Positions 16,789 to 63,945 of a stretch of 64,000 nt of DNA are shown piece by piece (within the stretch, counting starts at the first letter, position 1; each line of letters starts with the position of its first letter). The notes beneath the pieces were generated by a model. It did no database searches. It had not been told where the DNA came from and was given only the letters and a program-made list of their open reading frames with translations. Position numbers and translations under genes: made by a program. This DNA is from an uncultured Pseudomonadota bacterium (lineage in GTDB: Bacteria; Pseudomonadota; Alphaproteobacteria; Rs-D84), in the NCBI GenBank assembly GCA_902799285.1, contig CADCAA010000001.1, forward strand, positions 7,533-71,532, in the 5' to 3' direction.

Positions 16789-16936
16789 ATTTTTCTCCTT
16801 TTGAGTTTTTTTTGTTATCTTTGTGTCGATACCCAAATAGTATCAAATAGTTGGTCGTTTTTACATAGGTATGGATGCCCACGATTTTATGAATTTTTTC
16901 CTTTCTTTTTATTATTGGTTGATTAAAATATTTTGT

Positions 16937-18277
16937 ATGAAGGGAAAGATATTTGTTTTTGGGATTGGATTTGTAATTTCTGGCTCGGCACTTGGTGATA
17001 TTGTGCCGGTTCAAGAAGGGTCGCCATTGAATCCAACATACGTATATAACATTAACGGTGTTGATGATATGTATGATATGCCATCTGTGCCACAAACGCC
17101 GTTTAAAATTTTGGTGAATAATGGTGATGATAATCCGTATCCTTTGTCTGTATTGGATTCTATTTCAGACGGCGCGAACGAGGTTAAGTTTGCCTTGGGC
17201 GAAGGTGGGCCTGCGACGAATAGCAATATTATTTGGTTGGTTGATGATGCGTTTGATGGGACGTTTGATGCGCCAATAGTTCAGAATTCAACAATTAAAA
17301 TCCAATTGAGTGATGCTGTTTTAAATAGTGTGTCGGCTGATGGCGAAATTGTGCATTTTACTGGTATTACAGGAAATACAAATGCGATATATTTTTATGG
17401 CGAATATGATAATGTTTATGAAATTGGTGCGTGTTCTAATGGAATTGGAACGTGTATAAAACGGCGTTATTCAAATAGTCATATTGCTGAACAACAGGCG
17501 GAACAACGTGCAATACAGATTGCCAGAATCGGTGCCCGTAATAATCCGAAAATTTTATTGCGGCCTATGATGTTGATAAATCAATATGAATTATCGGGTA
17601 TATATAATTTTTCAGATGAATTTTATATATCTGTATCACCCGAATATTATTCTGTAAAAGATTTTCAAAATGCCGGTATACGCATTAATTCTGGGACAAA
17701 ATTTGGTGGTCGGTTGTATGTTGGGGCATCTGTGTATTTGGATAAATCGAATTTTCAAAACGATGTAAGTGATTTCAAATCTGATATATATGGCGGAAAT
17801 TTGCGTTTCCGTTATGATATTGACGATGTATTATTCTTGCGCGGCGTTGGTGGTATCAGTTTTGCCAGTATTGAATGTGATAATGTTATAAATGGTGATT
17901 CTGTTATTAATAATCCGAATGCATTTGGTGTATATGGTGGTATGGATTTTGGCGCAATGTTTAACTTTGAATCGGGGATATATGTGTCGCCGTTTGTTGG
18001 ATACGATGTATTATCAGGGTCCGTGGTTGGAATTCGTGATAATAATTCTTTTGCACATTTTGGGACGGATGTTGGTTTTAAGTATTTTATGGATGGTGTG
18101 AGTTATGGATATATGTTGCGTGGTGGCATAAATTCAGACGGATTTTTTGATGCGTCGGTTGGTATTGATATTGGTTCTGTATCCGACAAAATTGGTGGTG
18201 GTGTATCCATTGGTGTTTTGGATACTGATTATGGTTTGTCGGGAAAACTTTCGGCAAATGTTAGGTTTGCTTTTTAA
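16937..18277 (+). CDS. Autotransporter-like outer-membrane protein (short passenger + beta-barrel translocator)
   Basis: ATG 16937 and a signal peptide. A helical linker (RNNPKILLRPMMLINQ) is followed by about 270 aa of amphipathic beta strands ending in ANVRFAF. Confidence 0.7.
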   Translation: MKGKIFVFGIGFVISGSALGDIVPVQEGSPLNPTYVYNINGVDDMYDMPSVPQTPFKILVNNGDDNPYPLSVLDSISDGANEVKFALGEGGPATNSNIIWLVDDAFDGTFDAPIVQNSTIKIQLSDAVLNSVSADGEIVHFTGITGNTNAIYFYGEYDNVYEIGACSNGIGTCIKRRYSNSHIAEQQAEQRAIQIARIGARNNPKILLRPMMLINQYELSGIYNFSDEFYISVSPEYYSVKDFQNAGIRINSGTKFGGRLYVGASVYLDKSNFQNDVSDFKSDIYGGNLRFRYDIDDVLFLRGVGGISFASIECDNVINGDSVINNPNAFGVYGGMDFGAMFNFESGIYVSPFVGYDVLSGSVVGIRDNNSFAHFGTDVGFKYFMDGVSYGYMLRGGINSDGFFDASVGIDIGSVSDKIGGGVSIGVLDTDYGLSGKLSANVRFAF

Positions 18278-28355: not shown

Positions 28356-29216
28356 ATGTTTCGTAAGTTTTTGATTTTTGCAATGTTTGCAACGGCGGCT
28401 GGCTATTGCTTTGCTGATTCTTATTTGCCCCAGGTGACCACGTCCGAGGTTTTTGTTAACGGTGACATAATCGAACATCGTGCGACGCAAAATGATGCGC
28501 GTGATGCGGAACCGGCGCCGGTCGCGGAATATGGTAATGTTCCTGCGTGGCCAATTGCGGGTTCGGACGCGGACGTGACTGTAAAGTGCGATGATAAACC
28601 GGGTGTAAAAAATTCTGATAATATTCGTATTGTGTCCAAAATTGGCGATGATATGATTGTTGATAATACGTTTGATTTCAATGGAACTGGTTGGACGGGT
28701 GGTGCAAATATGCTGCACGGGAACCGGATTCCAATGGGATTTGACGACGAATGCGAAAATGGTGCCGAAATGCCTTTGTTGCGTCGCGATATGCTAGAAG
28801 ATGACGGTGGCAGTGTATTGGCTGTATCGCGCAGTGGTCGTAAAAATTGCACAAAGCGTAATGGTGCGGCGGACGCCGTGTTTATGGAAATGGATAACGA
28901 TGCCGATATTGCCGAAATTGGGGTAAAATCTGATGCCCAGGCGCCAAAATCACAACCGGACCAGGTTCGTTCTTGGGTTGTCGCCAATGGCCAGACCTTG
29001 CGTGAGGTTTTACAAAATTGGTGCGACAAAGAGGGCTGGGATTTGGTATGGGCGACATCGCGCGAATACCCGATTGAGGCCAGTGCTGTATTCAAGGGTC
29101 GTTTTACAGATGTTGCGTCTGCGTTGGTGCGTAATTTTGGACGTGCGACACCTGTGCCGTATGCCAAGTTTTACAAGGGAAATTTGGTTTTGGTGATTTC
29201 TACTAACGAAGACTAA
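28356..29216 (+). CDS. TcpQ/PilL-family type IVb pilus secretin-associated protein
   Basis: Signal peptide MFRKFLIFAMFATAAGYCFA. The C-terminal block VRSWVVANGQTLREVLQNWCDKEGWDLVWATSREYPIEASAVFKGRFTDVASALVRNF...YAKFYKGNLVLVIS matches the TcpQ-domain pattern of PilL/TcpQ proteins as recalled from memory. Confidence 0.6.
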   Translation: MFRKFLIFAMFATAAGYCFADSYLPQVTTSEVFVNGDIIEHRATQNDARDAEPAPVAEYGNVPAWPIAGSDADVTVKCDDKPGVKNSDNIRIVSKIGDDMIVDNTFDFNGTGWTGGANMLHGNRIPMGFDDECENGAEMPLLRRDMLEDDGGSVLAVSRSGRKNCTKRNGAADAVFMEMDNDADIAEIGVKSDAQAPKSQPDQVRSWVVANGQTLREVLQNWCDKEGWDLVWATSREYPIEASAVFKGRFTDVASALVRNFGRATPVPYAKFYKGNLVLVISTNED

Positions 29217-29240
29217 ATGCTTGGTGGGAGATATAGAGAT

Positions 29241-30869
29241 ATGAGAAGTTTGTTGAAAAAATTTGTTGTGTTTGCGTTTCTGGGGGCTGTGCTGGCGGGC
29301 TGTGCGCGTGAACAATCGGCCAAGGTTGCGGCGACCGTTGACCAGGATTTCGTTAACGCGTATGATGCGTTTGAAATGGCAAAAAATCCCCGTGCCAAGG
29401 TGGCCAGTGGCGATACGGTATCTGTATCCGAAGGTGTATGGTTGGGGAATAAATCGATATCGCTGGAACATCGCAATAATTTGCCGGCGCAATTTGAAAC
29501 GGATACGGGCATTACGATTTTGCTGGATGAACCTGTGACGTTGCAGGTTTTGGCGAATAATATCAATACTGTGACACATATTCCGGTTAAAATCGACAGG
29601 CAAATTAATTCTGAAAAATTGAAAAAGACAATCAATGTCGCATATACCGGTAAATTGTCCGGATTGCTGTCCCAGGTTGCAACCGATTTAGACCTGTTGT
29701 GGTATTATGATAAAAATTCGATTGTGTTTTATGAAACGGAAACGCGCACGTTTTCATTGTATGCGCTGGGGACCGATATTTCGTACCAGACCGCCGTGTC
29801 GACCGATAATTCCAGTAATGTTGTGCTGGAATCAACAATGAAGGAATGGGACGAGGTTGAAAAGGCCCTGACCGCGATTGTTGGTAATGCGGAAAATTCT
29901 GATTTCACCGTGTCGCGCAGTTTGGGAACAATTACCGCCACGGCACCACCGTCTGTGTTGGCGCGTATCAGTGACTATGTTGATCGGCAAAACAAACGGT
30001 TGTCGCAATTGGTGACAATTGATGTCAAGGTTTTACAGGTATCAATCGCGAACGATTCGGCATTCGGGTTGAATTTGGCGGCGGCGATAAATTCTACATC
30101 TGGGTTGAATATCGTTGCGAACCCCAAGAATAACTTGGCGGCCGTCGGGGCCAGTTCGATGAACATCGCCGTGTTGTCAAACGCGCTGTCTGCGACAACG
30201 GGTGCGACGCACGTCGAAAACGGCAGTGTGGTCAGTGGCGCATATACAAATGATCAAATTATGAACGGATCATTGGCGCGTGGCGCGGGCAGTGCCGGCT
30301 TGATTGAGGCTTTGGCAAAACAGGGCAAGGTGTCTTTGGTGACAAATGTTGGTGTGACGACGCGTAATAATCGTGTTGCCCCGGTCAGCAATATGACATC
30401 AACCGGATATATCAAACGTTTTGAATCTCGCAACTTTACAACGGTCGAATCCAGTACCGTTGACCAGGCGGATTTACAAACTGGTTTTTCAATGCAATTG
30501 TTGCCGAATGTTTTGGAAAATGGCAAAATTTTGTTGTTGTTCAGAATGTCTGTGCGTGAATTGGTGAAAATGTCGACCCAATCGATTGGCGAGGTCACAT
30601 TGCAATTGCCCGAGGTCGAAGAACGCAGTTTTATGCAAGAGGTTATTATGGAATCCGGCCAAATGTTGGTTGTATCTGGGTTTGAAAAGCAAAAGAATAA
30701 TGACACACGTTATGGTTTGGGCGATCCTGACTTTATGGCATTGTCTGGGTCACGTTCTACGACATCCGGCCGTGATGTGTTGGTTGTTATCCTGACGCCC
30801 CAGGTATTAATCAGTCCGTTGGATGCGGAACGCAGTATCCAACAAAATTGGGGAACACCATTGAATTAA
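29241..30869 (+). CDS. Lipoprotein secretin, type IVb pilus class (PilN/TcpC/BfpB-like)
   Basis: ATG 29241 and lipobox AVLAGC. C-terminal secretin domain (GKVSLVTNVGVTTRNNRVAPV...GFSMQLLPNVLENGKILLLFRMSVREL...GQMLVVSGFEKQKNN...RDVLVVILTPQVL). Confidence 0.8.
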   Translation: MRSLLKKFVVFAFLGAVLAGCAREQSAKVAATVDQDFVNAYDAFEMAKNPRAKVASGDTVSVSEGVWLGNKSISLEHRNNLPAQFETDTGITILLDEPVTLQVLANNINTVTHIPVKIDRQINSEKLKKTINVAYTGKLSGLLSQVATDLDLLWYYDKNSIVFYETETRTFSLYALGTDISYQTAVSTDNSSNVVLESTMKEWDEVEKALTAIVGNAENSDFTVSRSLGTITATAPPSVLARISDYVDRQNKRLSQLVTIDVKVLQVSIANDSAFGLNLAAAINSTSGLNIVANPKNNLAAVGASSMNIAVLSNALSATTGATHVENGSVVSGAYTNDQIMNGSLARGAGSAGLIEALAKQGKVSLVTNVGVTTRNNRVAPVSNMTSTGYIKRFESRNFTTVESSTVDQADLQTGFSMQLLPNVLENGKILLLFRMSVRELVKMSTQSIGEVTLQLPEVEERSFMQEVIMESGQMLVVSGFEKQKNNDTRYGLGDPDFMALSGSRSTTSGRDVLVVILTPQVLISPLDAERSIQQNWGTPLN

Positions 30870-30871
30870 AA

Positions 30872-30896
30872 AATCCGCTTCGGCGGATTTTTTTAT
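30872..30896 (+). terminator. Rho-independent terminator after the secretin gene
   Basis: AATCCGC-TTCG-GCGGATT followed by a T7 run. Confidence 0.8.
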
Positions 30897-31371
30897 TGCC
30901 AAGGGTTGTTTCCATTTTCTATACTAATAATCAGAATTCAATCGGAGTTGAATTCGGGGCCTTCAAAAGCCTTATCAAAACCCGGTGCAGGGTTTGCACT
31001 GTTATCCGAAAGCAGGACCGATTCGGTTTTGCGATAAATGACAGATTCAGACTTTGCGCCGACATATATAAAATTTTTCGTTGGCGCAAATTTTTTTGTA
31101 TAACGAAAATTTTGTATATGGATATATCCAATGATTAAACCCCGACGATGGTACCGGTTCGGGGTGCTGTATATCGCAAGGTATATGGGATCACATGGTT
31201 TTGATGATTTTTGAACACCCCGACCGCACTCTTGATTGAGGCGGTATTTTTTGTTTGTTTCGGGATTTTGCCCCGAAAACAATTCCCGCTGTTTAACCGC
31301 CGAAATCGGCGACAAGACAAGGCTTGGTCCTGAAACAAACAAAAAATACCACGAAAGCAAAGGGGAGACAG

Positions 31372-33606
31372 ATGAAAAAGATTTTGTTTGGATTGTTTGC
31401 ATTATTGTTTACCGTGCCGGTGTGGGCGACGAATCCGTGTCAGAATTTATGGAATAAAAATTTGGCTATCAGCGGCGCATACGATGCTAATGGCAGTTAC
31501 ACATATGATGATGCCAACACAACATATTCTGAAATTATGCCCGTGACCGCTGGACAAACAGTTGTTAGTATTACCCCGTTTAGCACTATGCATTTTATTG
31601 TGGTTTATAATGCTTCTGGTGCTGTGATATATCGGCCAGGACCGCAAACAGGCACCAGGGTTACATGGACTATTCCTGATAACGGTGTTGGCATGCGACC
31701 TATATTTGGAACAGCGAGTGCACCTGTGCATCCAGATGATAATATATTGATTTCATTGGATACCACGGCGACGGCGTATACGCCTTATGATCCGCGGTGT
31801 GAGACATGTGACGGGACGGTGATGAACTATACTTCGGCAACCGGAACCGTGACACAGAACGGCACGCCGACACCGACAAACCCGATTGACCCGGTTTTCT
31901 TTCGCCAAGGCGATATGGTCCTGCGCAAAGTCGGTGATGTCGCCGATTCATACGATGCAACAACCGGTAAAATCACACGCCGCGTCGGGGTCAAGGTGCT
32001 GAAGGGAACGGAAGAGTGGACACAAACCACGAGTACTTATAACGGTCTTGTTTATTATCGCGCTCTAAGCATATTGTATAATGCACCGGCAACCGGCGGC
32101 AACAATGCCGAGTTATATCCTGTTATATCTAATGTATTATCGCATAAATCTGGCATATGGTATAATACTAGCGATATGGAAAATGGAATTTCAACTTGTA
32201 ACAATGGTCAATGTATTGCAATGTCTCTTGTTTCTACATATCCAACAACCAGTGAGTTTAAGTCTTGGCTGGCGGGGCAGTATGCCGCGGGGAAACCGGT
32301 TGTGGTTTATTACCAGTTGGCTACACCGGTCGAGGAAGATTGGACGGAAAGTTCATATTGTTATTTGGCAATCAAAATTGCGACCACGCAACATGTGGCG
32401 GGGGCGTTCAGTGGGCTGAATAGTCAGCTGACTGCGGCGATTGCGACGGTGAACAGTGTCGTCACAAATACGATTGACCAGGCGAACCGCATCGCGGCGT
32501 TGGCGACGGGCAAGCAAACCCGCCCGACGGACACTTGCCCACAATATCGGCAATGCCTGCTGGTCGAAGGTACCGACGGCACCCCGCATTGGTACGAAAT
32601 CAACGACCCGTTTTATAACTTCTTTGCCCCGATTTTGGCAACGAACACGAACGGCACATCATCCACCAACGACCCAGGATATCAGCAGTTGGAGTATATC
32701 GAATCCACCGGGACACAGTATATTGATTTGGGTTATTCTATATCTGGAGATATGGGGTTTGATTTGAAGGCACGTTGTTTGGGTGCTGCGTTTGTGTTTG
32801 GAGGTAGATTGTCTTCTACCTCTGGTGTGTCCGGTTTTAACTTTGATGAAGCTGGTAGTAAAATTGGTATACGTATGGGTGGAAACATACTTTATGATGA
32901 GGCTATTTGGTATGATGGTACGGATTATGCAGTAAGTATCAAAAATGGTGATATCGAAGTGAATGGAACGAAAGTATCTAGTTCAACATATGGTAATAAC
33001 TTTTATACAGGACGTGCATATTTGTTTGCGGTTAATGATGGCGGAAATCTCAGTTCTGTAACATTTAATCGTAGTAGAATATATTATTTCAAGATGTACA
33101 ACAATAATATTTTGACGCAAAATTTCATCCCTGTCCGCAGGCTTTCCGACAGTGCGCTCGGTATGTATGACACGGTGAGCAAAACGTTCTTTGCCAATGC
33201 GGGTAGTGGCACATTTACGGCGGGGCCGAACGTGACCAACGATTCCGACGTGCCAAGTGGCCCGACCTGGCGCGTGACGTGGACCAACAACGGCAACAGC
33301 GCAAGCGGCACCGTGTATGGCGAGGGATTGTGTAATAATGTGAGTGGAACTTCTTTGGGCGTTGCAGCAACATCAAGTCAATTAAGTAATGCGGCATGGA
33401 ATCAGAGCAGCGCAAGTTGCTGGTGCCGTGCAACGGGTTTAACAAGTGGTGGCGATACGAATACCACGGATAATGGAGTGTGGGGGTTCCTCGCCACGTA
33501 CAGTTCGGCGGCTGATTGTGCGCGCTACTGTGCGTACGACTGCGCGGACCTCGTTCGTAGCAACCACGAGGGCTTCCGTTCGGTGATATTCAACGCCGTA
33601 AATTAA
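31372..33606 (+). CDS. Secreted modular tail-fibre-like / lectin-like protein (744 aa)
   Basis: ATG 31372 after the RBS AAAGGGGAGA. Signal peptide MKKILFGLFALLFTVPVWA. Modules are described in the findings. It shares several motifs with the 51432-53390 product. Confidence 0.75.
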   Translation: MKKILFGLFALLFTVPVWATNPCQNLWNKNLAISGAYDANGSYTYDDANTTYSEIMPVTAGQTVVSITPFSTMHFIVVYNASGAVIYRPGPQTGTRVTWTIPDNGVGMRPIFGTASAPVHPDDNILISLDTTATAYTPYDPRCETCDGTVMNYTSATGTVTQNGTPTPTNPIDPVFFRQGDMVLRKVGDVADSYDATTGKITRRVGVKVLKGTEEWTQTTSTYNGLVYYRALSILYNAPATGGNNAELYPVISNVLSHKSGIWYNTSDMENGISTCNNGQCIAMSLVSTYPTTSEFKSWLAGQYAAGKPVVVYYQLATPVEEDWTESSYCYLAIKIATTQHVAGAFSGLNSQLTAAIATVNSVVTNTIDQANRIAALATGKQTRPTDTCPQYRQCLLVEGTDGTPHWYEINDPFYNFFAPILATNTNGTSSTNDPGYQQLEYIESTGTQYIDLGYSISGDMGFDLKARCLGAAFVFGGRLSSTSGVSGFNFDEAGSKIGIRMGGNILYDEAIWYDGTDYAVSIKNGDIEVNGTKVSSSTYGNNFYTGRAYLFAVNDGGNLSSVTFNRSRIYYFKMYNNNILTQNFIPVRRLSDSALGMYDTVSKTFFANAGSGTFTAGPNVTNDSDVPSGPTWRVTWTNNGNSASGTVYGEGLCNNVSGTSLGVAATSSQLSNAAWNQSSASCWCRATGLTSGGDTNTTDNGVWGFLATYSSAADCARYCAYDCADLVRSNHEGFRSVIFNAVN

Positions 33607-33667
33607 TCAGTTTTGATTTTATGTGCATGAAATGGGGGCATCGTCCCCCGTTTGTCGCGCCGTCCAC

Positions 33668-33695
33668 AAAAAGGGGCTCCCGGGGCCCCTTTTTG
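33668..33695 (+). terminator. Probable terminator after the fibre-like gene
   Basis: AAAAAGGGGC-TCCCGGG-GCCCCTTTTT. Confidence 0.55.
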
Positions 33696-33834
33696 TCATT
33701 GCGAGGAGCCAAGACCAACTGGGGCATTGCCCCGGGCCGGGCGCGGCGACGTGGCAAACCAGTAAATAAAAAAAGTGTCGGCAAAGCCGACGGCTCTATA
33801 TTGACCTGGGTCCTTCGTTTCACTCAGGATGACA
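33694..33834 (+). repeat. MITE-like GC-rich element with imperfect terminal inverted repeats (TGTCATTGCGAGGAG ... CACTCAGGATGACA)
   Basis: The 5-prime 67 nt align with the reverse complement of 5297-5364. The 3-prime end GGGTCCTTCGTTTCACTCAGGATGACA resembles GGATCCTTGCGTCGTTTC...CCTCAGGATGACA at 5297-5364. G+C is far above the flanking DNA. Confidence 0.5.
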
Positions 33835-33841
33835 TAAAAAA

Positions 33842-33862
33842 ACATCGGACATTTGTCCGATG
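33842..33862. terminator. Bidirectional terminator (serves rpsT on the minus strand)
   Basis: ACATCGGACA-T-TGTCCGATGT perfect 10-bp stem flanked by A-runs and T-runs. Confidence 0.75.
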
Positions 33863-33867
33863 TTTTT

Positions 33868-34128
33868 TTAAGCAATTTTGGAAAGTTTTTTGGTTAAACG
33901 CGAAACCTTGCGTGCGGCGCGTTTTTTCGGCATTGTTTTGCCGGCGGATTTCATAATTTTACTTTCCGCGTTGCGCACGGCGATTGTCGCAGCCGCGCGA
34001 TCCCCAGTTGCAATTGCCGCCAAAGCCTTTTTCGTTTCGGTTTTTACAGCACTGCGCCGGGCGGTGTTAATCGCGTTCTTTTTAATTGTGACCAAAATTC
34101 TTTTTTTAGATGACTTGTGATTTGCCAT
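33868..34128 (-). CDS. rpsT: 30S ribosomal protein S20
   Basis: MANHKSSKKRI start, 86 aa, basic, S20-like throughout. Confidence 0.9.
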   Translation of the reverse strand: MANHKSSKKRILVTIKKNAINTARRSAVKTETKKALAAIATGDRAAATIAVRNAESKIMKSAGKTMPKKRAARKVSRLTKKLSKIA

Positions 34129-34210
34129 TTTTTATTTTCCCTTGTTATTTTGAACTTGTTCGTGGTAATTTTATATCAAACAAAATTAAAATCAAGGAGA
34201 ATTATCAAAA

Positions 34211-34798
34211 ATGTTGTATTTTTTTATCGTTTTGGTTGCATATGTGCTTGGAAGCATCCCGTGTGGACTGATTTTGACTAAATTGATGGGGCGGGGCGAT
34301 TTGCGCCGCGTCGGCAGTGGTAATATCGGCGCAACCAATGTGATGCGTGTGGGGGGGCTGCGTATGGCCGGATTGGTTTGGATTCTGGATATGGCCAAGG
34401 CGATGATTGCTGTATGGTTGGGGTGCCGTGTTGGATCCGTCGGTTTTGGCGCGTGGTGCGGATTTTTTGCCGTGGTTGGGCATTGTTTTCCAATCTTTTT
34501 GCGGTTTCACGGGGGCAAGGGCGTGTCGTCGATGTTTGGAACCGTGCTGGCGATAAATCCGATTATTTTTGTTGTGTGTGGCATCGAGTGGTTGATTGTC
34601 GCGCTGACATCTGGTAAATCATCGGCCGGGGCGGTGGTGGTTTTTTGCCTGGTGCCGATTTTGGGATTTGTGATGTCGGCCGCCGTGGGCGCAGCGTTTT
34701 TGGCAACTGCAATTTTGGTCGCAATTCGGCATCGCGAAAATATTGTGCGATTGGTTAGTGGTGTTGAATCATCCATCGAATGGAAGTGGCGGAAGTAG
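34211..34798 (+). CDS. plsY: Glycerol-3-phosphate acyltransferase PlsY
   Basis: GSIPCGLILTK...GSGNIGATNVMR motif and about 5 TM segments. Confidence 0.9.
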   Translation: MLYFFIVLVAYVLGSIPCGLILTKLMGRGDLRRVGSGNIGATNVMRVGGLRMAGLVWILDMAKAMIAVWLGCRVGSVGFGAWCGFFAVVGHCFPIFLRFHGGKGVSSMFGTVLAINPIIFVVCGIEWLIVALTSGKSSAGAVVVFCLVPILGFVMSAAVGAAFLATAILVAIRHRENIVRLVSGVESSIEWKWRK

Positions 34799-37116: not shown

Positions 37117-37529
37117 TTAAAATCTTGTATATACAATGTCTATACACAAGGCGTAAATCTGGGGAAAAAACGAATCGTTGTCAAAATGTAAAATTAAAAA
37201 ATGATTTTAAGAAATTGTTGAAAACGTATTTTTATGTAATACATTTTCCATTGTCAAAAGAAACAAAAAAGACGAGAGAAACAAAAGCAGGGGGCGGTCG
37301 TATAAGCGAATGTAATATAAACATATTATTCGAACTTGTGCGGCATTATCTTTATAAGCGAGAGAGTAAAAAAGTAGGGCAATATATAAATATTAATTTG
37401 ATGTATGAATTTTTGTAAAACTGATGCAAAAAATTCGGGTGAATCAAATTTAATGTTTATGTGCAGGTGGTTTTTATACTCTTGACGCGGGCAGGAAACT
37501 CTTTTAGAAGGAAGGAAAGGAGAAACGGC

Positions 37530-38792
37530 ATGCAGGCAGCAACAAAAAACATAGATGTGAAAACAATCAAAGATATGATTGCACAGCAGATGGATTTTGC
37601 GGCTTGGACTTCGTGGATTGCGCCTTTGTCCTTTGAAATTTCTGATAATGTTTTGGTGTTGGCCGCGCAAAATCAATTTTCGGCCGATTATATTTCCAGT
37701 GTTTATGGTGCAACATTACAAAATGTCGCGCGCGCATTTGATTTGGATGTTAAATTAGTTGTGCGTGGAACTGCGCCGGTTTCCAAAATTGCAAATGATA
37801 ACAATGTGCAATCCTATGCCCCGGTTATGGATGCGGTGGCCCCGGTTGCATTTGATGCGTTTATCGCGTCGGATGAAAATGCGTTTGTGTTGTCGACCGC
37901 AAAAAAGGTGGCAACGGGTGCGGTATCTTTTTCACCGTTGTTTATTTATGGGGCGGCGGGCACAGGCAAAACTTTGTTGGCGGATTGCATAAAATCTGAA
38001 TCACAAAATGCGATTTTGATGACCGGTGGTCAATTTGTTGCGGAATTTACACGTGCATTACACAACAGAACAATTTTCGCGTTCAAAGATTTTTGTCGCA
38101 ACTGTGATACGTTTATTTTAGACGATGTCCAGGCTTTGGCGGGTAAACGCGCAACAATGGATGAATTTTTGCAGTTGGTTATGGATTTGCGCGCATCTGG
38201 TAAAAATGTTGTTTTGACGGCCCCATGTTCACCAAATAATTTAACAGGTTTTGACCGTCGTGCACAATCGTTGTTGGCGTCGGGCTTGGTTGCAGATATT
38301 ACTGCGCCAAATGCAAATGTTAAACGCACAATGTTGGTTCGGGCAGGTGTTGCCACCGATGTCGCGGATGCAATTGCGAATCGTATTGCAAATGATGGCC
38401 ACATGATAAGTGGTGTTGCAAATAAAATTAAAACATATTCTGAATTGATGGGTGGTCGCGTCACATTGGAAATCGCGGAACATTTGTTGGGTGATACATT
38501 GGAAAAATTCAAGACACCAATTGCTATGGTAAAAAATATGTGCGAAAAATTGGGTGTTTCATATGATGCGATTTGTGGGGCGGGGCGTGCGCGTCAATTG
38601 GTTTTAGCACGTCAGATGATAATGGTTGTTTTGAAAAATTCTACACGTTTGTCTTTGTCTGAAATTGGTCAATATGTTGGCAATCGTGATCATGCAACCG
38701 TTATGTACGCAATAAAACAAATTGAAAAGATGCAGGCGTCCGATTTGATGTTGAGCGCACAGATTGCACAATTAATTGCGGAATGCAAGTAA
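37530..38792 (+). CDS. dnaA: Chromosomal replication initiator DnaA
   Basis: Start set at ATG 37530 after the RBS GGAAAGGAG. Walker A GAAGTGKTLL and the C-terminal DNA-binding region SLSEIGQYVGNRDHATVMYAIKQIEK. Confidence 0.9.
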   Translation: MQAATKNIDVKTIKDMIAQQMDFAAWTSWIAPLSFEISDNVLVLAAQNQFSADYISSVYGATLQNVARAFDLDVKLVVRGTAPVSKIANDNNVQSYAPVMDAVAPVAFDAFIASDENAFVLSTAKKVATGAVSFSPLFIYGAAGTGKTLLADCIKSESQNAILMTGGQFVAEFTRALHNRTIFAFKDFCRNCDTFILDDVQALAGKRATMDEFLQLVMDLRASGKNVVLTAPCSPNNLTGFDRRAQSLLASGLVADITAPNANVKRTMLVRAGVATDVADAIANRIANDGHMISGVANKIKTYSELMGGRVTLEIAEHLLGDTLEKFKTPIAMVKNMCEKLGVSYDAICGAGRARQLVLARQMIMVVLKNSTRLSLSEIGQYVGNRDHATVMYAIKQIEKMQASDLMLSAQIAQLIAECK

Positions 38793-48704: not shown

Positions 48705-49823
48705 ATGGAATTTTCTGTTTTTCGTCAGGTTTTAATCCGTGCGCTGGGGCATATGCAATCCATTGTTGAAAAGCGTGCAACTTTGCCAATTTTGATGAAT
48801 GTAAAGTTGGATGTATCTGATGATTTGGTTTTGTCTGCGACCAATGTTGATTTGGAATTGGTTGAACATGTGGCGGCGGATATTACTTTGGCGGGCAAAA
48901 CAACTGTGCCGGTCCAGATGTTATATGATATTGTTCGCAAATTGCCTGATGATGCCGAAATTTCTTTCAAACAGGTTGGTGACCAATTGGTCGTGTCCAG
49001 TGGTCGTGCGGTATTTCATTTGCCAACTTTGCCGGCGGAAAATTTCCCGGCCATGGCGGGCAGTAATTTAACCACAAAGTTCCAAATGACAACTGGTGAT
49101 TTGGCACACTTGATTAACCAAACAAAATTCGCAATTCCAACGGATGATGTGCGTTATCATTTGGGCGGTATTTATTTCCATATTTCCGAGGAAGGCAAAT
49201 CAAAAATGTTAACCGCGGTTGCAACCGATGCCCAACGTTTGGCATTGTGTGCTATGCCGGCACCGGTGGACAGTGCCGCTATGCCATCTGTGATTTTGCC
49301 ACGTCGTGTTATTGGTGAGTTATCTAAATTGTTGGAAGATGCCAATGTTGATGATGTCACGGTTGAATTATCTGATACCAAGGCGCGCTTTACAATTGGT
49401 GCCGCTATTTTGACCAGTAAATTGGTTGATGCACAATATCCAAACTATCGCGTTGTGATTCCAAAAGGCAACGATAAAATTGCCGTTATGGACAGAAAGC
49501 AATTTGTGAACGCGGTTGATTTGGTGTCGGTCGCATCTGTTGATAAAACAAAGTCTGTGCAATTGACGTTTTCAACAAACAAATTGGTTATTAACGCGTC
49601 CAGTCCGGATGCTGGAACCGCGACCCAGGAATTGGATGTTGAATACAATGGCGATAGTTCGTTTACCGTTGTGTTTAATGTGAAATTCTTGCTGGATGTC
49701 GCGGGCCAGGTCGAGGGCGAAAAGTTCCAAATGGAAATGCAGGATCCATTATCGCCAACAACGATTAAATCTACGGACAAAAAGACGGATGCGTTATTCG
49801 TATTAATGCCCATGCGCATGTAA
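48705..49823 (+). CDS. dnaN: DNA polymerase III beta sliding clamp
   Basis: 372 aa with the typical N-terminus (...LGHMQSIVEKRATLPILMNVKL) and three-domain length. Confidence 0.9.
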   Translation: MEFSVFRQVLIRALGHMQSIVEKRATLPILMNVKLDVSDDLVLSATNVDLELVEHVAADITLAGKTTVPVQMLYDIVRKLPDDAEISFKQVGDQLVVSSGRAVFHLPTLPAENFPAMAGSNLTTKFQMTTGDLAHLINQTKFAIPTDDVRYHLGGIYFHISEEGKSKMLTAVATDAQRLALCAMPAPVDSAAMPSVILPRRVIGELSKLLEDANVDDVTVELSDTKARFTIGAAILTSKLVDAQYPNYRVVIPKGNDKIAVMDRKQFVNAVDLVSVASVDKTKSVQLTFSTNKLVINASSPDAGTATQELDVEYNGDSSFTVVFNVKFLLDVAGQVEGEKFQMEMQDPLSPTTIKSTDKKTDALFVLMPMRM

Positions 49824-50881: not shown

Positions 50882-51370
50882 ATGAAAAAACATTTAGTCT
50901 TTGCCGGTGCCATGGGCGTATTGCTTATGGGTGCGGCAAATGCAGAAGTCGTACAGAATTTTCCGGCGGATACGACACATCCAGAATTTACTGCGGAGTC
51001 TAATCAAGCAAAGCCGTATGCTGTGCGTGAATCCAATATAAAAGCAGCAACAACGAATTATGTTAATAATCGCCTGGACGAAGCAAATGCCGATGTTCAA
51101 GCTTTGGCCGGTACCGCGGCAACAGATGCGGCAACTGTGGATACCAATGCGACTGCGATTGCAGCAATGCAAACGGGCAGACAGGTGCATCCAGGTACGG
51201 ATACGTGCAGTACTGCATCTGATAATGATTTGACCGCTGCTGGAACGGCTGCGGGTGCATCGTATGTTGCGTGTGGTTATATTGTACCAAATGGTACAAA
51301 TGCGGACAGCAATACTGCATCAAATTACAATTGGGTCAAGATTGTGACGGTTCCGTCGTTGGAATCTTAG
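50882..51370 (+). CDS. Small secreted protein with Ala/Thr-rich coiled-coil and Cys pair, upstream partner of the 51.4-kb fibre-like gene
   Basis: Signal peptide MKKHLVFAGAMGVLLMGAANA. AIAAMQTGRQVHPGTDTC resembles the KQTRP..C joint of the two large proteins. Confidence 0.55.
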   Translation: MKKHLVFAGAMGVLLMGAANAEVVQNFPADTTHPEFTAESNQAKPYAVRESNIKAATTNYVNNRLDEANADVQALAGTAATDAATVDTNATAIAAMQTGRQVHPGTDTCSTASDNDLTAAGTAAGASYVACGYIVPNGTNADSNTASNYNWVKIVTVPSLES

Positions 51371-51431
51371 TGCCTGAAAAAAATAAATAGTTGTTCATAT
51401 ATGATTTCTTTGTTCAGTGGGAGAGAACGTT

Positions 51432-53390
51432 ATGTCTAGATTAAAATTCTTGTCATGTGTGATATTATCGTCATTTGTGGCGATATCCGCGGCGTATGCA
51501 GAAGGCGAAGAAGCAATTCCTGCACAGACCGAGCCCGAATCGTTGCAAGATGTTGTTACGGGTAATACACCAACAGAGGCCACAATAACATCGATGGGCG
51601 TTTGTGGCGAGAATTTATTTAATCCCCAATTGTTATCCGAATCGGATTTTAATGTGACTATATCAAATGGGACTATGAGTGCCGTTGGTAAATGGAATCA
51701 ATATGTGAATGCATATGTGTCTGCATATAATTTTGGTTTCAAGCCGGGTAAAAAGTATAAAGTCACATATACCATCAAATGTGGTGATACTGAGACAGGG
51801 ACGCGTTTTTTAGGGTTAAAGTTGGCTGATAATACGGTTGTTGGTCCGACGAATGTGTGTGCTGGTCAAACCGGGGACAAGTTGGTTTCGTATTGGTATG
51901 ACAGCAGTGTGTCGAATCCCGTTGTTGGTATGGTTGCGGGTGGTGAAGCATCAGAGGAAGAGATAACATTGCAAAATGTTATGGTGACCGAGGCTGAAAT
52001 GTCGACGTCGTCGTATATTCCATATCTTGCATGTATCAAAGTTGCGTCAAAGTTGAGTACAGACAATCGTGCCGCGGTTGTGGAAAATCGTTTGAACGAT
52101 GTTCGTTCTGTGATTACCAATTTGATAGGTCAAATGGAGACAAATACCACGAATATTCTGTCACTGAATAATGCAAAACAAACACGTCCGGCGACGGCCT
52201 GTGATGATGGCAAAAAATGTTTGTTGGTCAAAGATACCAATGGCGGGAATCATTGGTATGAAATCCAGGATTGTAACGAGGATGATTTCTTGGATGATGT
52301 TGGGACGATGACGACGTGTACTGATTGTGGTGCTTATGTTGCCGGGATGCGTTATGCCAATGGCGGTAATGGTAAAATGTGTGAGGCTTTATCAAGTACG
52401 GCTGCGGCAGGATGTGATACTAATGAATGGGCAACTTCTTTTGCCAATAATACAAACAATACCAGTGGAATAATTTATGGAACGGCCAGAACGGTTCCAA
52501 TTGCGGAACGTAATGTTGGCACGGTTGTAGAGTTAAGCAGTGCGACTTTGGCAATGTCTGGAAATGTTTGTGTGTGTCAGGCGACCAGATATGTGTCAAA
52601 TGGTGTTGAAACAGTTTTGCCCGAAAGTGATAAGTGGATGGTGGCCAAAGTTATGACAGGTACGTTTACTAATGATAACTGTTTAGAAGTTTGTGCGCAT
52701 GAAGACCAGGGCGTATCTGGTTCTGCAAGTGATTCTGCAAAATATGCGGCATATTTCAAAAATATTAGTAGTTCATGCAGCCCAAATGCACAGAGCACAA
52801 CAACATGTAATTACAATTCGTTCTTGCGGACATTGTATGATGGGTTGGATTCGGGTTTAGTGTCGATTTCCATTTCGTCCCAAGGAACAAATGGATTACG
52901 TGTTTACGGCAGTTGCGGGACAGGTGGTAGTTTTGCATCTGATACAGATATTTGCGGAACATCGGTGACAAATCCGGGCGCGTGGGTTGTTGGTGCGATA
53001 CAAACAGATGCGCTTAATGGAACGCTGTATTCCAGTGTGTACAATGGCGCGTTGGTATATGGTAAATCCAGATGTGTTTCAGATTCATCTGTGTTTGACA
53101 ATGTTGCGGACTTTGATGTCGTAAAGTTGGATAGTGCGCCGGCGGCATCCAATTCTGGGACGGTATGTTTGCACAATATAACGGGATACAAACCGGCCAA
53201 TGGTAGCAAGACTGCAACCAGTGCTGAAAGCCAAAAATACTGGATTGTTAAAAAGTATGCAACGGCCGAAGAATGCAATGCAGAAAATAGTACAAGCGGT
53301 TGCTATGGCGAAGGTTGGACCGAAAGTTATCTGAGGAATGGTAATTTCGATTTCTATGGCAAGGTCGGCGATGCATGTTTGGCTAATTAA
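51432..53390 (+). CDS. Secreted modular tail-fibre-like protein (652 aa), paralog-by-module of 31372-33606
   Basis: ATG 51432 after the RBS GGGAGAG. Signal peptide MSRLKFLSCVILSSFVAISAAYA. Shared motifs CGENLFN, IKVAS, a coiled coil followed by AKQTRPATAC..KKCLLV...HWYEIQD, and two C-terminal CxC...W...Cx3C modules. Confidence 0.7.
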   Translation: MSRLKFLSCVILSSFVAISAAYAEGEEAIPAQTEPESLQDVVTGNTPTEATITSMGVCGENLFNPQLLSESDFNVTISNGTMSAVGKWNQYVNAYVSAYNFGFKPGKKYKVTYTIKCGDTETGTRFLGLKLADNTVVGPTNVCAGQTGDKLVSYWYDSSVSNPVVGMVAGGEASEEEITLQNVMVTEAEMSTSSYIPYLACIKVASKLSTDNRAAVVENRLNDVRSVITNLIGQMETNTTNILSLNNAKQTRPATACDDGKKCLLVKDTNGGNHWYEIQDCNEDDFLDDVGTMTTCTDCGAYVAGMRYANGGNGKMCEALSSTAAAGCDTNEWATSFANNTNNTSGIIYGTARTVPIAERNVGTVVELSSATLAMSGNVCVCQATRYVSNGVETVLPESDKWMVAKVMTGTFTNDNCLEVCAHEDQGVSGSASDSAKYAAYFKNISSSCSPNAQSTTTCNYNSFLRTLYDGLDSGLVSISISSQGTNGLRVYGSCGTGGSFASDTDICGTSVTNPGAWVVGAIQTDALNGTLYSSVYNGALVYGKSRCVSDSSVFDNVADFDVVKLDSAPAASNSGTVCLHNITGYKPANGSKTATSAESQKYWIVKKYATAEECNAENSTSGCYGEGWTESYLRNGNFDFYGKVGDACLAN

Positions 53391-61656: not shown

Positions 61657-63945
61657 ATGAGAAGTAGAACAGGATTTTATTCGGTTGTTTTAACAAGCAT
61701 TATTTGTATGCTGTCGGGTGGTGTGATGGCTGCGACCCCGGTGCGCGTTTTGGGAACAAATAGTCAATCGGGTGGCGATGCGGCGGCTGGCAGTTCGTTG
61801 AATAATACGGGGGCTGTTTCTGTTAAACCTGCGACATCTGTGAATGCGCGTGCATCTTCGTTGCGTTTTTCGCCAACTGTGACAACCAAGGCGGAAAATT
61901 CATCGGGTTCTGCATCGGTGAATACCACTGTTCGCAATCCATCGTCGGGTGTTGTTGTGAATCCGTCGAATGCGGCTTCTGCGCGTTTGTCTATTGGAAA
62001 ATATTTGAATTTATCACACTCAACGAAAAATGTTGCGACAAATGGTGGTGGTTCGTCATCTGGGGGTGGATCTTCGTCCGGTGGCGGTTCGTCGGGCGGT
62101 GGTGCGTCCAATGCGGATATTGATCGTTTGACTGCTGAATTGGATGATTTGCAAAGACAGATTAATGCCCTGAAAGATGGTAAACAGAATGCTTTACAGG
62201 TTGGTGATGGTGATTACATTGATATCGGTGGTGATGATGATAATGTGATTTCTATTGATATTGAAGCGTTGAAAGATGATTTGCGTCTGGCATTGGGAAC
62301 AGAAAGACCAATTTTAACCGAAATCGATGAAAATTATAAATTGTGGTGGTGCTATGCCAATGATGCTAAAACGTCATGTGCAAGTGATAGACAGTTGGTC
62401 GTTGATTTGGGCAGCGCGATGGATGAATATGATTTGCCCGCAAATAATGTTTCGTTAAAGGATGCTTTGGCTGGGAAACAGGGGATATTGACCCCCGCGG
62501 ATAATGGTTTTATTGCGATTGAGCAAGCAACGGGCAAAATTGGAATACAGTTTAATGATTTAAGGGATGCGTTGGGTATATCCGATGTGAAACAGTCTGA
62601 AATCCGCTTTACCGAAGATGGCAAATTGCAATGGCGTTATATGGATGAATTCGAAGAAGAGCCAGATCCAGAGACGGGTTTGCAAGTTAAAAAATGGAAT
62701 ACGGCTGATATTGACGGATTGATAACGCAACGTTTGTCTAATTTTGAAGTGGAATTGGCGGGCAAGCAGGGAACTTTGGTGGCCAATCCAGATGGATATA
62801 TCCAGATTTCAAATAACAATGTCATTGATGTTAAACTTCAGGATTTGCGTGATGCTTTGAACATTCCAAATCCCCAGGCGAAAATAGAAATGGAAATAAC
62901 AAATGCGGGTAAATTGCGCTGGCGTTATTTAGACGAATTTGAAACAGATGAAGAAACGGGCGAACAGGTCAAAAAATGGACCGAGGTTTCCGAAGATTTG
63001 GGGACGTTTGTTGATGGCAAATTGGCGAATTATGCAACCAAGACTTATGTTGATGATTCTGTGAATGCCCGTCAAATGAAGTTGATTGAAAATGAAAACG
63101 GATTCATCGAAATATCAGAAGAAAATGTTATCGATGTCAAATTTGCTGATTTAGAGGCAGCGTTGGGTATTGATAACAAGCGCAATGCGGAAATGCGTGT
63201 TGAAAATGGCGTTTTCCAATGGCGCTATATGAGTGATTTTGAAACAAATGACCAAGGCGAAATTCAAAAAGATGACCAAGGCAACGATATCAAAAAGTGG
63301 ACAAATGTCTATGATTTGAATGCTGTATTAAATGATTATGTGACGAAAACCGCGTTGAATGAAATTGTGGAACGTATTGATACTGATTTGGCTGGCAAAC
63401 AGATAAGGTTAACGCCGGCTGATGATGGTTATATTGTTTTGAACGAGCAAACTGGTGAAATCGCTGTTGATATGCAGGGGTTGATGCAATATTTGACGAT
63501 TGAAGCTAATGGGGCCAGAACGACTGAATTGATTGTGTTTGATGGTAAGTTGCAATGGCGTTATACGGATGAATATGAAACGGATAACGATCCGGAATCC
63601 CCAGGATATGGAAATCAGAAAAAGATTTGGCATGTTTTGGATTTAACAGCTGTGGAATTGCCGCTGTATGTCAAAGATTATTATCTGAAAAAGAATTATT
63701 ACAACAAAACCTATATCGATAATTTGGCGCGGACAATAGAAAATAACATCAATGTGACGTTGGAAAATCTGCATCCATCGAATAATGGTTTGTTCTTGCT
63801 GAGTGTCAGTGACGGTGCGAACAACACCAAAGTGTCGTCATGGCATGCGGTCCAGATTGTTGATGGCGATGGAACTTTGTTGTCTAATTTAGGTTCAAAT
63901 TCGAATTCGAATTCTGAGCCAGAGCAAAATTCAGGTAATGATTAA
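61657..63945 (+). CDS. Large secreted repeat protein (762 aa): Ser/Thr-rich N-region, Gly-Ser linker, coiled coil, five modules of about 100 aa
   Basis: Signal peptide ...CMLSGGVMAA, (GGGSSS)n at about 62043-62110, and five LxGKQ...dGyI.I......I.V....L..AL...G.LqWRY.DEFE....KKW modules between about 62170 and 63720. Confidence 0.7.
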   Translation: MRSRTGFYSVVLTSIICMLSGGVMAATPVRVLGTNSQSGGDAAAGSSLNNTGAVSVKPATSVNARASSLRFSPTVTTKAENSSGSASVNTTVRNPSSGVVVNPSNAASARLSIGKYLNLSHSTKNVATNGGGSSSGGGSSSGGGSSGGGASNADIDRLTAELDDLQRQINALKDGKQNALQVGDGDYIDIGGDDDNVISIDIEALKDDLRLALGTERPILTEIDENYKLWWCYANDAKTSCASDRQLVVDLGSAMDEYDLPANNVSLKDALAGKQGILTPADNGFIAIEQATGKIGIQFNDLRDALGISDVKQSEIRFTEDGKLQWRYMDEFEEEPDPETGLQVKKWNTADIDGLITQRLSNFEVELAGKQGTLVANPDGYIQISNNNVIDVKLQDLRDALNIPNPQAKIEMEITNAGKLRWRYLDEFETDEETGEQVKKWTEVSEDLGTFVDGKLANYATKTYVDDSVNARQMKLIENENGFIEISEENVIDVKFADLEAALGIDNKRNAEMRVENGVFQWRYMSDFETNDQGEIQKDDQGNDIKKWTNVYDLNAVLNDYVTKTALNEIVERIDTDLAGKQIRLTPADDGYIVLNEQTGEIAVDMQGLMQYLTIEANGARTTELIVFDGKLQWRYTDEYETDNDPESPGYGNQKKIWHVLDLTAVELPLYVKDYYLKKNYYNKTYIDNLARTIENNINVTLENLHPSNNGLFLLSVSDGANNTKVSSWHAVQIVDGDGTLLSNLGSNSNSNSEPEQNSGND

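Follow-up and report, generated by a model that had tools for sequence, protein, structure and literature searches.

We analysed a 64-kb stretch of DNA (hereafter the window; contig CADCAA010000001.1, positions 7,533 to 71,532) from an uncultured alphaproteobacterium whose relatives include Ca. Enterousia, order Rs-D84. The gene at 31372-33606 on the forward strand (hereafter the target) is an intact open reading frame (ORF) of 744 codons, and its translation matches exactly the product given in a first-pass annotation of the window. We consider it very probable that the target encodes a ligand-binding protein of mosaic build, exported by the Sec pathway and perhaps an adhesin, which belongs to a multi-copy family and whose C-terminal tip, domain D4, is diversified by a diversity-generating retroelement (DGR). 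The first-pass annotation had taken the Cys-rich tail as just another module of a fibre-like protein. The DGR cassettes of relatives and the codon footprint in the target identify it instead as a DGR variable-region domain.

DGR cassettes in related genomes

Complete cassettes directed at D4 were found in related genomes. At the loci L003/L004, a reverse transcriptase (RT) of the RVT_1 family is encoded beside the 3' end of a gene for a 676-aa protein that ends in a D4 tail. At L003/L011, a second copy of the last 133 nt of the D4-tailed gene lies 888 nt downstream and directly precedes an Avd-like ORF and the RT, and the RTs of L003/L004 and L011 are the same (99-100% identity). All 15 mismatches between the copies of this 133-nt repeat lie at adenines of the template, mostly in AAC codons. 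Such a restriction of the mismatches to template adenines is the signature of a DGR. Further, independent cassettes at L094, L182 and L183 show the same kind of layout, that is, a D4-tailed or small target, a template repeat (TR), Avd and RT, with RTs only 57-78% identical. Adenine-specific mismatches between variable region (VR) and TR were observed in L094 and L182.

A degenerate pattern of the VR scaffold matched 14 loci in six reference metagenome-assembled genomes (MAGs), including Ca. Enterousia onthequi, RUG13827, RUG13375 and UBA3635. RUG13827 carries one template, with ten AAC codons, and four diversified VRs on a single 85-kb contig. When the VRs of the six MAGs were compared with the RUG13827 template, 13-18 of the 26 A positions differed versus 0-2 of the 58 non-A positions. 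Positional entropy across the VRs was 2.2-3.3 bits at the AAY-templated residues and about 0 at the scaffold residues. In these relatives, D4 is the target domain of a lineage-specific DGR, and one template serves several dispersed VRs. The RT clade comprises 2004 proteins at E<=1e-30, the named ones being from Alphaproteobacteria or Enterousia MAGs, on contigs often 200-500 kb long; targets at a distance of tens of kb from their RT are usual in this clade.

Several other features of these cassettes were observed. Between the TR and the Avd-like ORF, L003 (1504-1700) and L011 contain arrays of 7-nt units (ACAAAGT/ACAAATA) in two blocks, and the L003 cassette contains a 117-nt repeat in three copies (1119-1235, 1757-1873 and 2029-2145). 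An autotransporter gene lies near the DGR in L183. At two loci on contig 4 of RUG13827 (L013 and L015), the VR 3' ends read …SFRSA(L/V)…, unlike the …GFRAAVF of the resident template; either there is a second template in RUG13827 or these targets are no longer addressed.

The variable region of the target

The scaffold W.F..T..SAA.CA..CA..CA..VR.. fits the tail of the target codon for codon, and the scaffold codons TGT-GCG, TGT-GCG, TGC-GCG and CGT are kept. The variable residues are 707, 708, 710, 715, 718, 719, 722, 723, 726, 727, 730 and 731. At all 12 of these AAC/AAT-templated positions, the target has NNC or NNT (CTC GCC TAC GAT CGC TAC TAC GAC GAC CTC AGC AAC). Compared with the RUG13827 template, 15 of 26 A positions of the target VR differ versus 6 of 58 non-A positions (Fisher p=1e-5). 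A second comparison was made with P0002, the closest relative of the window D4, which lies at a different locus and is 85-93% identical in DNA over the stalk module and D4; no TR or RT was found within 10 kb on its contig. Between the two, 16 of the 24 first and second bases of the AAY-templated codons differ, as do none of the 12 third bases and 6 of the 60 others (p=4e-7). The GC content is 63% in the VR, 47.5% in the gene and 42% in the window. Judged from these nucleotide patterns, the tail is a product of DGR-type adenine mutagenesis, because its codons are NNC/NNT, because it differs from both the template and P0002 preferentially at A positions, and because the VR is GC-rich. In confirmed targets, the stretch equivalent to 33571-33591, at the 3' end of the VR, is common to the template.

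Some facts weigh against a target that is still being diversified. No RT or Avd (tblastn, best E ~1) and no template (short-word blastn) was found in the 64-kb window. Scanning the metagenome collection with a pattern of the target's VR scaffold and 3' end gave 0 matches, and the window's genome is absent from the reference-genome scaffold matches. The target VR has six non-A differences from the only available template and one extra codon before GFR; it thus needs a template of its own or is a relic. Some D4 tails of the family, and both D4-like domains of a second family member in the window (51417-53390), have drifted from the scaffold, so D4 can persist without diversification.

These facts could be explained if the target is a relic. 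The tail would then owe its diversity to a DGR that acted in an ancestor, or to recombination with a diversified paralog, and the protein would now be an exported binding protein of fixed specificity with no matching template or RT. The missing RT and TR, the lack of a matching template in the collections, the non-A differences with the one-codon indel, the drifted tails and the divergent VR 3' ends of L013 and L015 all favour such a history. We nevertheless consider it the less likely reading, though a serious alternative. The templated third base is kept in all 12 codons relative to P0002 despite the changes at the first two bases, the scaffold codons are conserved including their synonymous sites, and the VR is still a GC-rich island. 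Under neutral drift, these features would erode. Since remote targets are normal in the RT clade, moreover, the lack of an RT in 64 kb is not evidence of loss.

The D4 domain

D4 has six invariant Cys residues (654, 683, 685, 716, 720 and 724) as well as invariant Trp and Gly columns. Modelled alone, it gave a predicted local distance difference test score (pLDDT) of 86.8 and a predicted TM-score (pTM) of 0.80. In the model, the VR forms a strand (705-709) and a helix (713-729). The VR repeat unit is x-x-C-A, which places two variable residues side by side at each turn, with the invariant Cys and Ala at the other positions. This arrangement suggests that the six invariant Cys residues form three disulfides, which would pin the VR helix to the sheet.

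A structure search of PDB with the D4 model found no neighbour (best E 3.4, TM<=0.30), the D4 profile gave 0 matches at E<=1 against PDB sequences, and none of the Pfam families FGE-sulfatase, DUF1566 and Lectin_C matched at E<=1 in 43 D4 members. As modelled, D4 has neither the C-type-lectin (CLec) fold nor the immunoglobulin (Ig) variable-domain fold. The major VR classes of Wu et al. (2018; PMC5758913) are CLec1-3 and Ig1-2, with additional unassigned 'UVR' clusters. D4 appears to be a previously undescribed scaffold for targeted hypermutation. We go one step further only tentatively: D4 may be an unrecognised structural class of DGR variable domain, a strand plus a Cys-pinned helix face, serving a trans-acting multi-target DGR that diversifies the mosaic, partly phage-derived adhesins with which gut Alphaproteobacteria of <1 Mb genome size would hold partner cells or host glycans.

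D4-like domains were found in 1166 representative clusters at E<=1e-3. The proteins range from stand-alone domains of ~130 aa to giants of 6218 aa with up to seven copies, and cluster look-ups gave no names for the D4-bearing giant proteins. One D4-like protein is viral. Contig L103 (IMGVR_UViG_3300028797_000370) encodes at 1168-1824 on the reverse strand a 218-aa protein with a D4-like tail and the exact VR scaffold (…WVFNRTTDSAALCARYCADFCAYYVRDLAGFRAAVF), which suggests that phages of the lineage have the variable domain in common or exchange it, possibly along with the DGR.

Export signal and modular architecture

A database search gave 280 homologs, all unnamed or 'hypothetical'. The named sources are MAGs of uncultured Alphaproteobacteria, with several homologs per MAG. 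The counts below cover the 120 homologs listed among the 280. No match to the whole 744-aa protein was found in Pfam, PHROGs or NCBIfam.

The target begins with MKKILFGLFALLFTVPVWA followed by Thr. By a hydropathy heuristic and by conservation, this segment is organised into n, h and c regions, like a Sec signal peptide cleaved by signal peptidase I (SPase I). The same kind of N-terminus is present in 98 of the 120 homologs, and the remaining ones look truncated or mis-started. The Sec signal peptide proposed in the first-pass annotation is thus supported. A lipoprotein anchor was considered and rejected, since Cys23 of the target lies outside any lipobox and the cleavage after VWA is of the SPase I type. 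Nor does the protein resemble a trimeric autotransporter adhesin: it has no Pfam match, and its C-terminus is D4, with no YadA-like barrel.

Homolog coverage profiles and iterated module hidden Markov models (HMMs) delimited five modules after the signal peptide, namely D1 (aa 20-135), D2 (140-330), the stalk (325-435), D3 (432-625) and D4 (622-744). The module borders guessed in the first-pass annotation agree well with these, and the motifs that it quoted were found where it had placed them: GTPTPTNPIDP at 31861-31893, IKIATT at ~32370, YQQLEYIESTGTQYIDLGY from 32680 and the Cys-rich tail from ~33415. The stalk, present in 120/120 homologs, is the sole invariant module and defines the family; its invariant columns include I334, A337, C389, C395, L396 and L397. 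D2 was detected by HMM in 111 homologs and D4 in 53, and D3 occurs in 102 proteins with 144 instances. D1 is restricted to a minority of paralogs (coverage ~20/120; 29 proteins by HMM). The architectures are shuffled. D3 often directly follows the signal peptide and is present in one to four copies per paralog, and D4 is optional.

The full-length AlphaFold2 model, a monomer prediction, has a pLDDT of 73; D3 and D4 are confident, D2 and the stalk moderate and D1 poor (~40-60). In the stalk, a helix (347-379), of modest confidence (pLDDT ~55-66), and strands (394-410) are predicted.

The second family member, at 51417-53390, lies 18 kb downstream of the target. It aligns with the target over aa 300-429 (tblastn, 34%) and matches the HMMs of the stalk (2.6e-19) and, in two stretches, of D4 (2.7e-09). 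Its stalk motif reads …IKVAS…KQTRP…CLLV…HWYEI, and its D4-like domains are without the DGR scaffold. Just upstream, the ORF at 50882-51370 (+) encodes a 162-aa signal-peptide protein, of which only an Ala/Thr-rich segment is stalk-like. The data support the view that the target is a Sec-exported, modular, binding-type protein of a large unannotated multi-copy family, found in MAGs of reduced-genome gut/rumen Alphaproteobacteria.

The D3 domain and its phage relatives

The model of D3 has a pLDDT of ~80-96. In a Foldseek search of PDB, D3 matched laminin-G, neurexin, agrin, galectin, pentraxin and BACOVA_03559, a Bacteroides carbohydrate-binding protein. These matches are weak yet consistent (probability 0.94-1.0, target TM 0.35-0.53, E 2e-3 to 3e-2), and their alignment lengths of ~150-190 columns fit D3. 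Much stronger matches were obtained in BFVD, a database of predicted viral structures. Two uncharacterised gut Siphoviridae proteins matched, one with E 6e-16, 27% identity and a root-mean-square deviation (RMSD) of 3.2 Å and the other with TM 0.72, followed by proteins annotated as LamG-like jelly-roll, ConA-like lectin or tail fibre. A profile-guided scan located D3 in 78 IMG/VR loci; in the three annotated ones it lies inside or beside genes for tail fibre, tail protein or tail-fibre assembly. D3 is predicted to adopt the ConA-like/LamG lectin jelly-roll fold and may bind sugars. A match of D3 to the phi29 preneck appendage gp12, found in a PDB sequence search (E 0.012), was judged to be due to chance, being lost when the D3 profile was used.

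The impression of the first-pass annotation that parts of the protein are jelly-roll or lectin-like and recall phage receptor-binding proteins was therefore right for D3, on the evidence of PDB, BFVD and the tail-gene neighbourhoods in IMG/VR. For the protein as a whole, the relationship fails. No tblastn match to the whole protein was found in 50,697 phage genome records, nor any match in PHROGs (0) or PDB, and the whole-family profile found nothing among PDB sequences. Among the 79 viral loci fetched, none had a tblastn match to the stalk at E<=1e-4. Of the proposal of a domesticated phage fibre, it stands that D3 is related to phage proteins and that the protein is exported and chromosomal, while no phage-fibre homology was shown for D1, D2, the stalk or D4. 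'Domesticated tail fibre' is too strong a label. D3 itself points to the recombination of phage tail modules into cellular exported proteins.

The neighbouring secretin and conserved synteny

A secretin gene lies upstream of the target, and the first-pass annotation had suggested that the two are functionally tied. The secretin is a strongly conserved core gene (81-94% identity, hundreds of MAG clusters). The gene order TcpQ, secretin, variable gene, rpsT, plsY, dprA, dnaA is kept across the loci examined; at least seven genomes other than that of the window have it. In the closest genomes, the slot of the variable gene again contains a family member, each time a different mosaic; the shared modules are at most ~34% identical, with flanks of 77-85% DNA identity. 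Genomes that are more remotely related have signal-peptide proteins outside the family in this slot. In L100/L101, a Cys-rich repeat protein is found there. In L102 (11925-14483), it is a 510-aa coiled-coil repeat fibre with the motif NPHAVTKAQVGLGNV and the end NPHAVTKAQVGLGNVQNVDQTN, which may resemble a motif of phage tail fibre proteins, and downstream of it comes a Gly-rich protein of 330 aa.

Between the target and plsY, a conserved 86-aa ORF at 33868-34128 (-), found at every syntenic locus, resembles ribosomal protein S20 (MANHKSSKKR…). An overlapping 111-aa ORF at 33621-33956 (+) has no family match and is probably spurious.

The target could be a domesticated phage tail fibre or receptor-binding protein exported through the adjacent orphan secretin. 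The relatives of D3 in phage tail genes, by structure and sequence, and the D4-like VR protein on a viral contig are in keeping with such an origin. Nine genomes (the window, L067 and L096-L102), with secretins 81-97% identical, have a variable gene just 3' of the secretin. The gene in this slot bears a signal peptide wherever its N-terminus is readable, and no other route of export across the outer membrane is evident in the window. On the other side, the whole protein has no match in phage genomes, PHROGs or PDB, and neither the window nor the homolog loci show genes of phages or tailocins. Because the secretin gene is followed by a terminator and a promoter-like site before the target begins, the target is probably a separate transcription unit. 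Of the 96 loci searched, only two have a secretin near the family member, and these two are orthologs of the window locus; the members checked elsewhere have unrelated housekeeping genes as neighbours. Among the window ORFs scanned, no pilus-assembly genes, no genes for inner-membrane components of type II secretion systems or type IV pili, and no assembly ATPase or platform genes were seen. The signal peptide of the target is of the Sec/SPase I type, not that of a prepilin. A survey of the host lineage in mSphere (PMC12306168) refers to type IV pili in another lineage only. An exported fibre of this kind is therefore improbable in our judgement.

The proposed functional tie was not borne out, given the separating terminator and promoter-like site, the two loci in 96 and the unrelated proteins in the distant slots. 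The expectation that homologs are chromosomal and always next to secretins fared unevenly: at the loci checked, the surroundings are housekeeping and non-phage, and a secretin is not always beside the gene. The adjacency is best read as local synteny, a hotspot for variable exported genes. A role of the secretin as the outer-membrane exit for the target is neither supported nor excluded.

The phage-like D3 and a general impression of a fibre might suggest that the gene marks one end of a prophage or tailocin cluster that the assembly or the window boundary has cut. This reading is effectively refuted: the gene lies 31 kb from either end of the window, and sufBD, the TcpQ protein and the secretin upstream and rpsT, plsY, dprA and dnaA downstream form a conserved housekeeping synteny kept in at least seven other genomes.

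Proposed mechanism and function

Diversification of the target by the DGR, our preferred interpretation, would proceed as follows. The RT and the Avd-like accessory protein would copy a template repeat that has AAC or AAT codons at 12 positions. Misincorporation would occur opposite the adenines, and the resulting cDNA would overwrite the last ~110 nt of the gene. Twelve residues would be randomised, giving about 15^12, or 1e14, combinations on the beta-strand and one helix face of the model. One template would serve several scattered D4-tailed paralogs as trans targets. The RT and template are presumably still carried by the genome of the window, outside the 64 kb.

The protein would be displayed on the cell surface or released from it, and would serve attachment to partner cells or to glycans of the host. 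D3, being lectin-like, might provide a general affinity for glycans, and the hypervariable D4 might be the tip that confers specificity. The most likely function is that of a diversifiable adhesin for partner cells or host glycans. According to Roux et al. (2021; PMC8144416), most cellular DGR targets combine a signal peptide or transmembrane segment with carbohydrate-binding or adhesion domains. The layout of the target is exactly of this type, which supports a binding protein. The mSphere survey reports that genomes of the host lineage are smaller than 1 Mb and are without the tricarboxylic acid cycle and respiration; it does not mention retroelements. Such a reduced metabolism of the host fits a dependence on partners.

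Other features of the window

The features of the target locus and of the second family member are collected in Table 1. A search of 30500-34300 against Rfam, which includes the hairpins 3' of the stop codon, gave sub-threshold noise only. The other window ORFs that were scanned are housekeeping (recJ-like, lolA, tatC, thyA, gatAB, sufBD, rpsT, plsY, dprA, dnaA, gyrB/parE-like, dnaJ, uvrC, dnaN and tolB, among others) or unannotated. As the first-pass annotation had stated, there are no phage structural genes; this holds for every ORF scanned with Pfam and PHROGs.

Table 1. Positions of the target gene, its modules and associated features in the window
Feature	Positions	Strand	Basis
TcpQ-domain protein	28356-29216	+	Pfam PF10671
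PilN-like lipoprotein secretin, lipobox LAGC	29217-30869	+	Pfam PF00263; TIGR02520 9e-70, below cut-off
Intrinsic terminator of the secretin gene	30868-30894	+	sequence
Promoter-like site	30896-30925	+	promoter scan, 10/12 match
Ribosome-binding site GGGGAGA before the ATG at 31372	31362-31368	+	sequence
Coding sequence of the target, mosaic exported protein (signal peptide-D1-D2-stalk-D3-D4), 744 aa	31372-33606	+	translation, 280 homologs, ribosome-binding site
Sec-type signal peptide, aa 1-19, MKKILFGLFALLFTVPVWA	31372-31428	+	hydropathy; same type of N-terminus in homologs; helix 2-14 in model
D1, variable N-terminal beta-rich module opening C-x-NL(F/W)(N/D)	31429-31776	+	coverage, HMM
D2, conserved beta domain (SATGTV.QNGTPTP.NPI.P ... 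TGKITRRVG ... YYPLA)	31789-32361	+	HMM, nearly invariant residues
Stalk: IKIATT, Ala/Thr/Asn helix of ~33 residues, KQTRP, Cys389/Cys395 beta-hairpin CLLV...HWYEI, short helix	32344-32676	+	HMM, model
D3, predicted LamG/ConA-like lectin jelly-roll (YTELEYIESTGTQYID ... GMYD.V...F..N.G.G.F..G)	32665-33246	+	HMM, model, Foldseek
D4, Cys-rich C-terminal domain with DGR variable region	33235-33603	+	HMM, invariant columns, model
VR core, aa 704-731, WGFLATYSSAADCARYCAYDCADLVRSN, 12 variable codons	33481-33564	+	codon alignment to confirmed VR/TR pairs
VR 3' end, GFRSVIF codons, candidate initiation of mutagenic homing (IMH) region, putative function	33571-33591	+	VR/TR 3' ends of L003, L011, L018 and L094
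Two GC-rich hairpins 3' of the stop, GGGGGCATCGTCCCCC and AAAAAGGGGCTCCCGGGGCCCCTTTTT; candidate terminator and/or DGR-associated hairpin	33634-33694	+	sequence and fold
Second family member: signal peptide, different head, stalk and two degenerate D4-like domains	51417-53390	+	tblastn, HMM

Two further ORFs may encode surface proteins. The ORF at 61657-63945 (+) encodes a 762-aa protein with no Pfam match, a signal-peptide-like N-terminus and a Gly/Ser-rich linker. By eye, it contains about five repeats of ~95 aa (…AGKQ..L.P..NGFI.I…L.DAL.I…GKL.WRY.DE.E…), and it may be another repetitive surface protein. The ORF at 16871-18277 (+) encodes a 468-aa protein with a weak match to an autotransporter beta-domain (PF03797, 2.2e-06) and is a candidate surface protein. 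Over nearly all of the 64 kb, the GC skew stays positive and never changes sign, although dnaA (37461-38792) and dnaN (48705-49823) are present; the window thus contains no skew switch that would mark the replication origin.

Comparison with known systems

To our knowledge, DGRs are the only natural system of targeted protein hypermutation known in prokaryotes. Structurally characterised DGR variable proteins use the C-type-lectin fold, and a few VR classes are assigned as Ig-like. If our interpretation of D4 is correct, it would be a third compact scaffold, tolerating ~1e14 variants on a helix face, and would be of interest for the mechanism and evolution of DGRs and for binder engineering. 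It would also provide a concrete hypothesis for partner recognition in a gut lineage (Rs-D84 / Ca. Enterousia and relatives) that is uncultured and metabolically dependent. The analysis identifies a large unannotated family of proteins and domains (the D4-like clusters described above), the function of which can now be tested.

The system resembles the DGR proteins of the CLec fold, such as Mtd of BPP-1, TvpA of Treponema denticola, LdtA of Legionella and TaqVP of Thermus. As in those proteins, a C-terminal VR is rewritten from an AAC-rich template by adenine-specific mutagenic retrohoming (PMC5758913, PMC8144416). The cassette likewise contains an Avd-like ORF and an RT, and invariant scaffold residues are interleaved with variable ones. 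The cellular examples have export signals, as the target does, and probably act as ligand-binding proteins of the cell surface. In contrast to the CLec proteins, D4 has no sequence or structural similarity to CLec or Ig domains, and the model places its variable residues on a strand and along one side of a long helix that carries three invariant Cys residues. The target furthermore includes a lectin jelly-roll and a stalk in a shuffled, mosaic architecture, and RT and template do not adjoin the gene.

With the LamG-like tail proteins of phages (A0A8S5P150 and A0A8S5TMI0 of gut Siphoviridae; L104-L181 of IMG/VR), the target shares D3, at 22-39% identity over ~190 residues, an RMSD of 3.2-3.4 Å and the common opening motif GYT.LEYI. 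Unlike them, it is chromosomal, Sec-exported and outside a virion gene set. Only D3 is clearly common to both, D2 giving weak matches on four viral contigs.

Paul et al. (2015/2017) reportedly described DGRs in reduced-genome bacteria of the candidate phyla radiation (CPR) and in DPANN archaea. If our interpretation is correct, the present system would be an alphaproteobacterial counterpart of the use of DGRs in CPR and DPANN episymbionts. The multi- or remote-target DGRs of these organisms (compare bioRxiv 10.1101/2024.11.15.621889) likewise combine one retroelement with several dispersed binding proteins in attachment-dependent hosts, and the type V pilus tip adhesins of gut Bacteroides are likewise diversified binding proteins from a gut habitat. 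The present system differs from all of these in its alphaproteobacterial (Rs-D84-like) host, its target family and its VR scaffold.

A looser likeness exists to the mosaic adhesive trimer (MAT) fibres of Bdellovibrio. According to what Caulton et al. (2024) are said to have found, these form a multi-copy family with a common stalk and swapped tips, some of them phage-like, and recognise other cells. We know of no MAT fibre that is a DGR target. The likeness is by analogy, with no homology claimed: in both cases, a cellular multi-copy family combines a common stalk with swapped tips.

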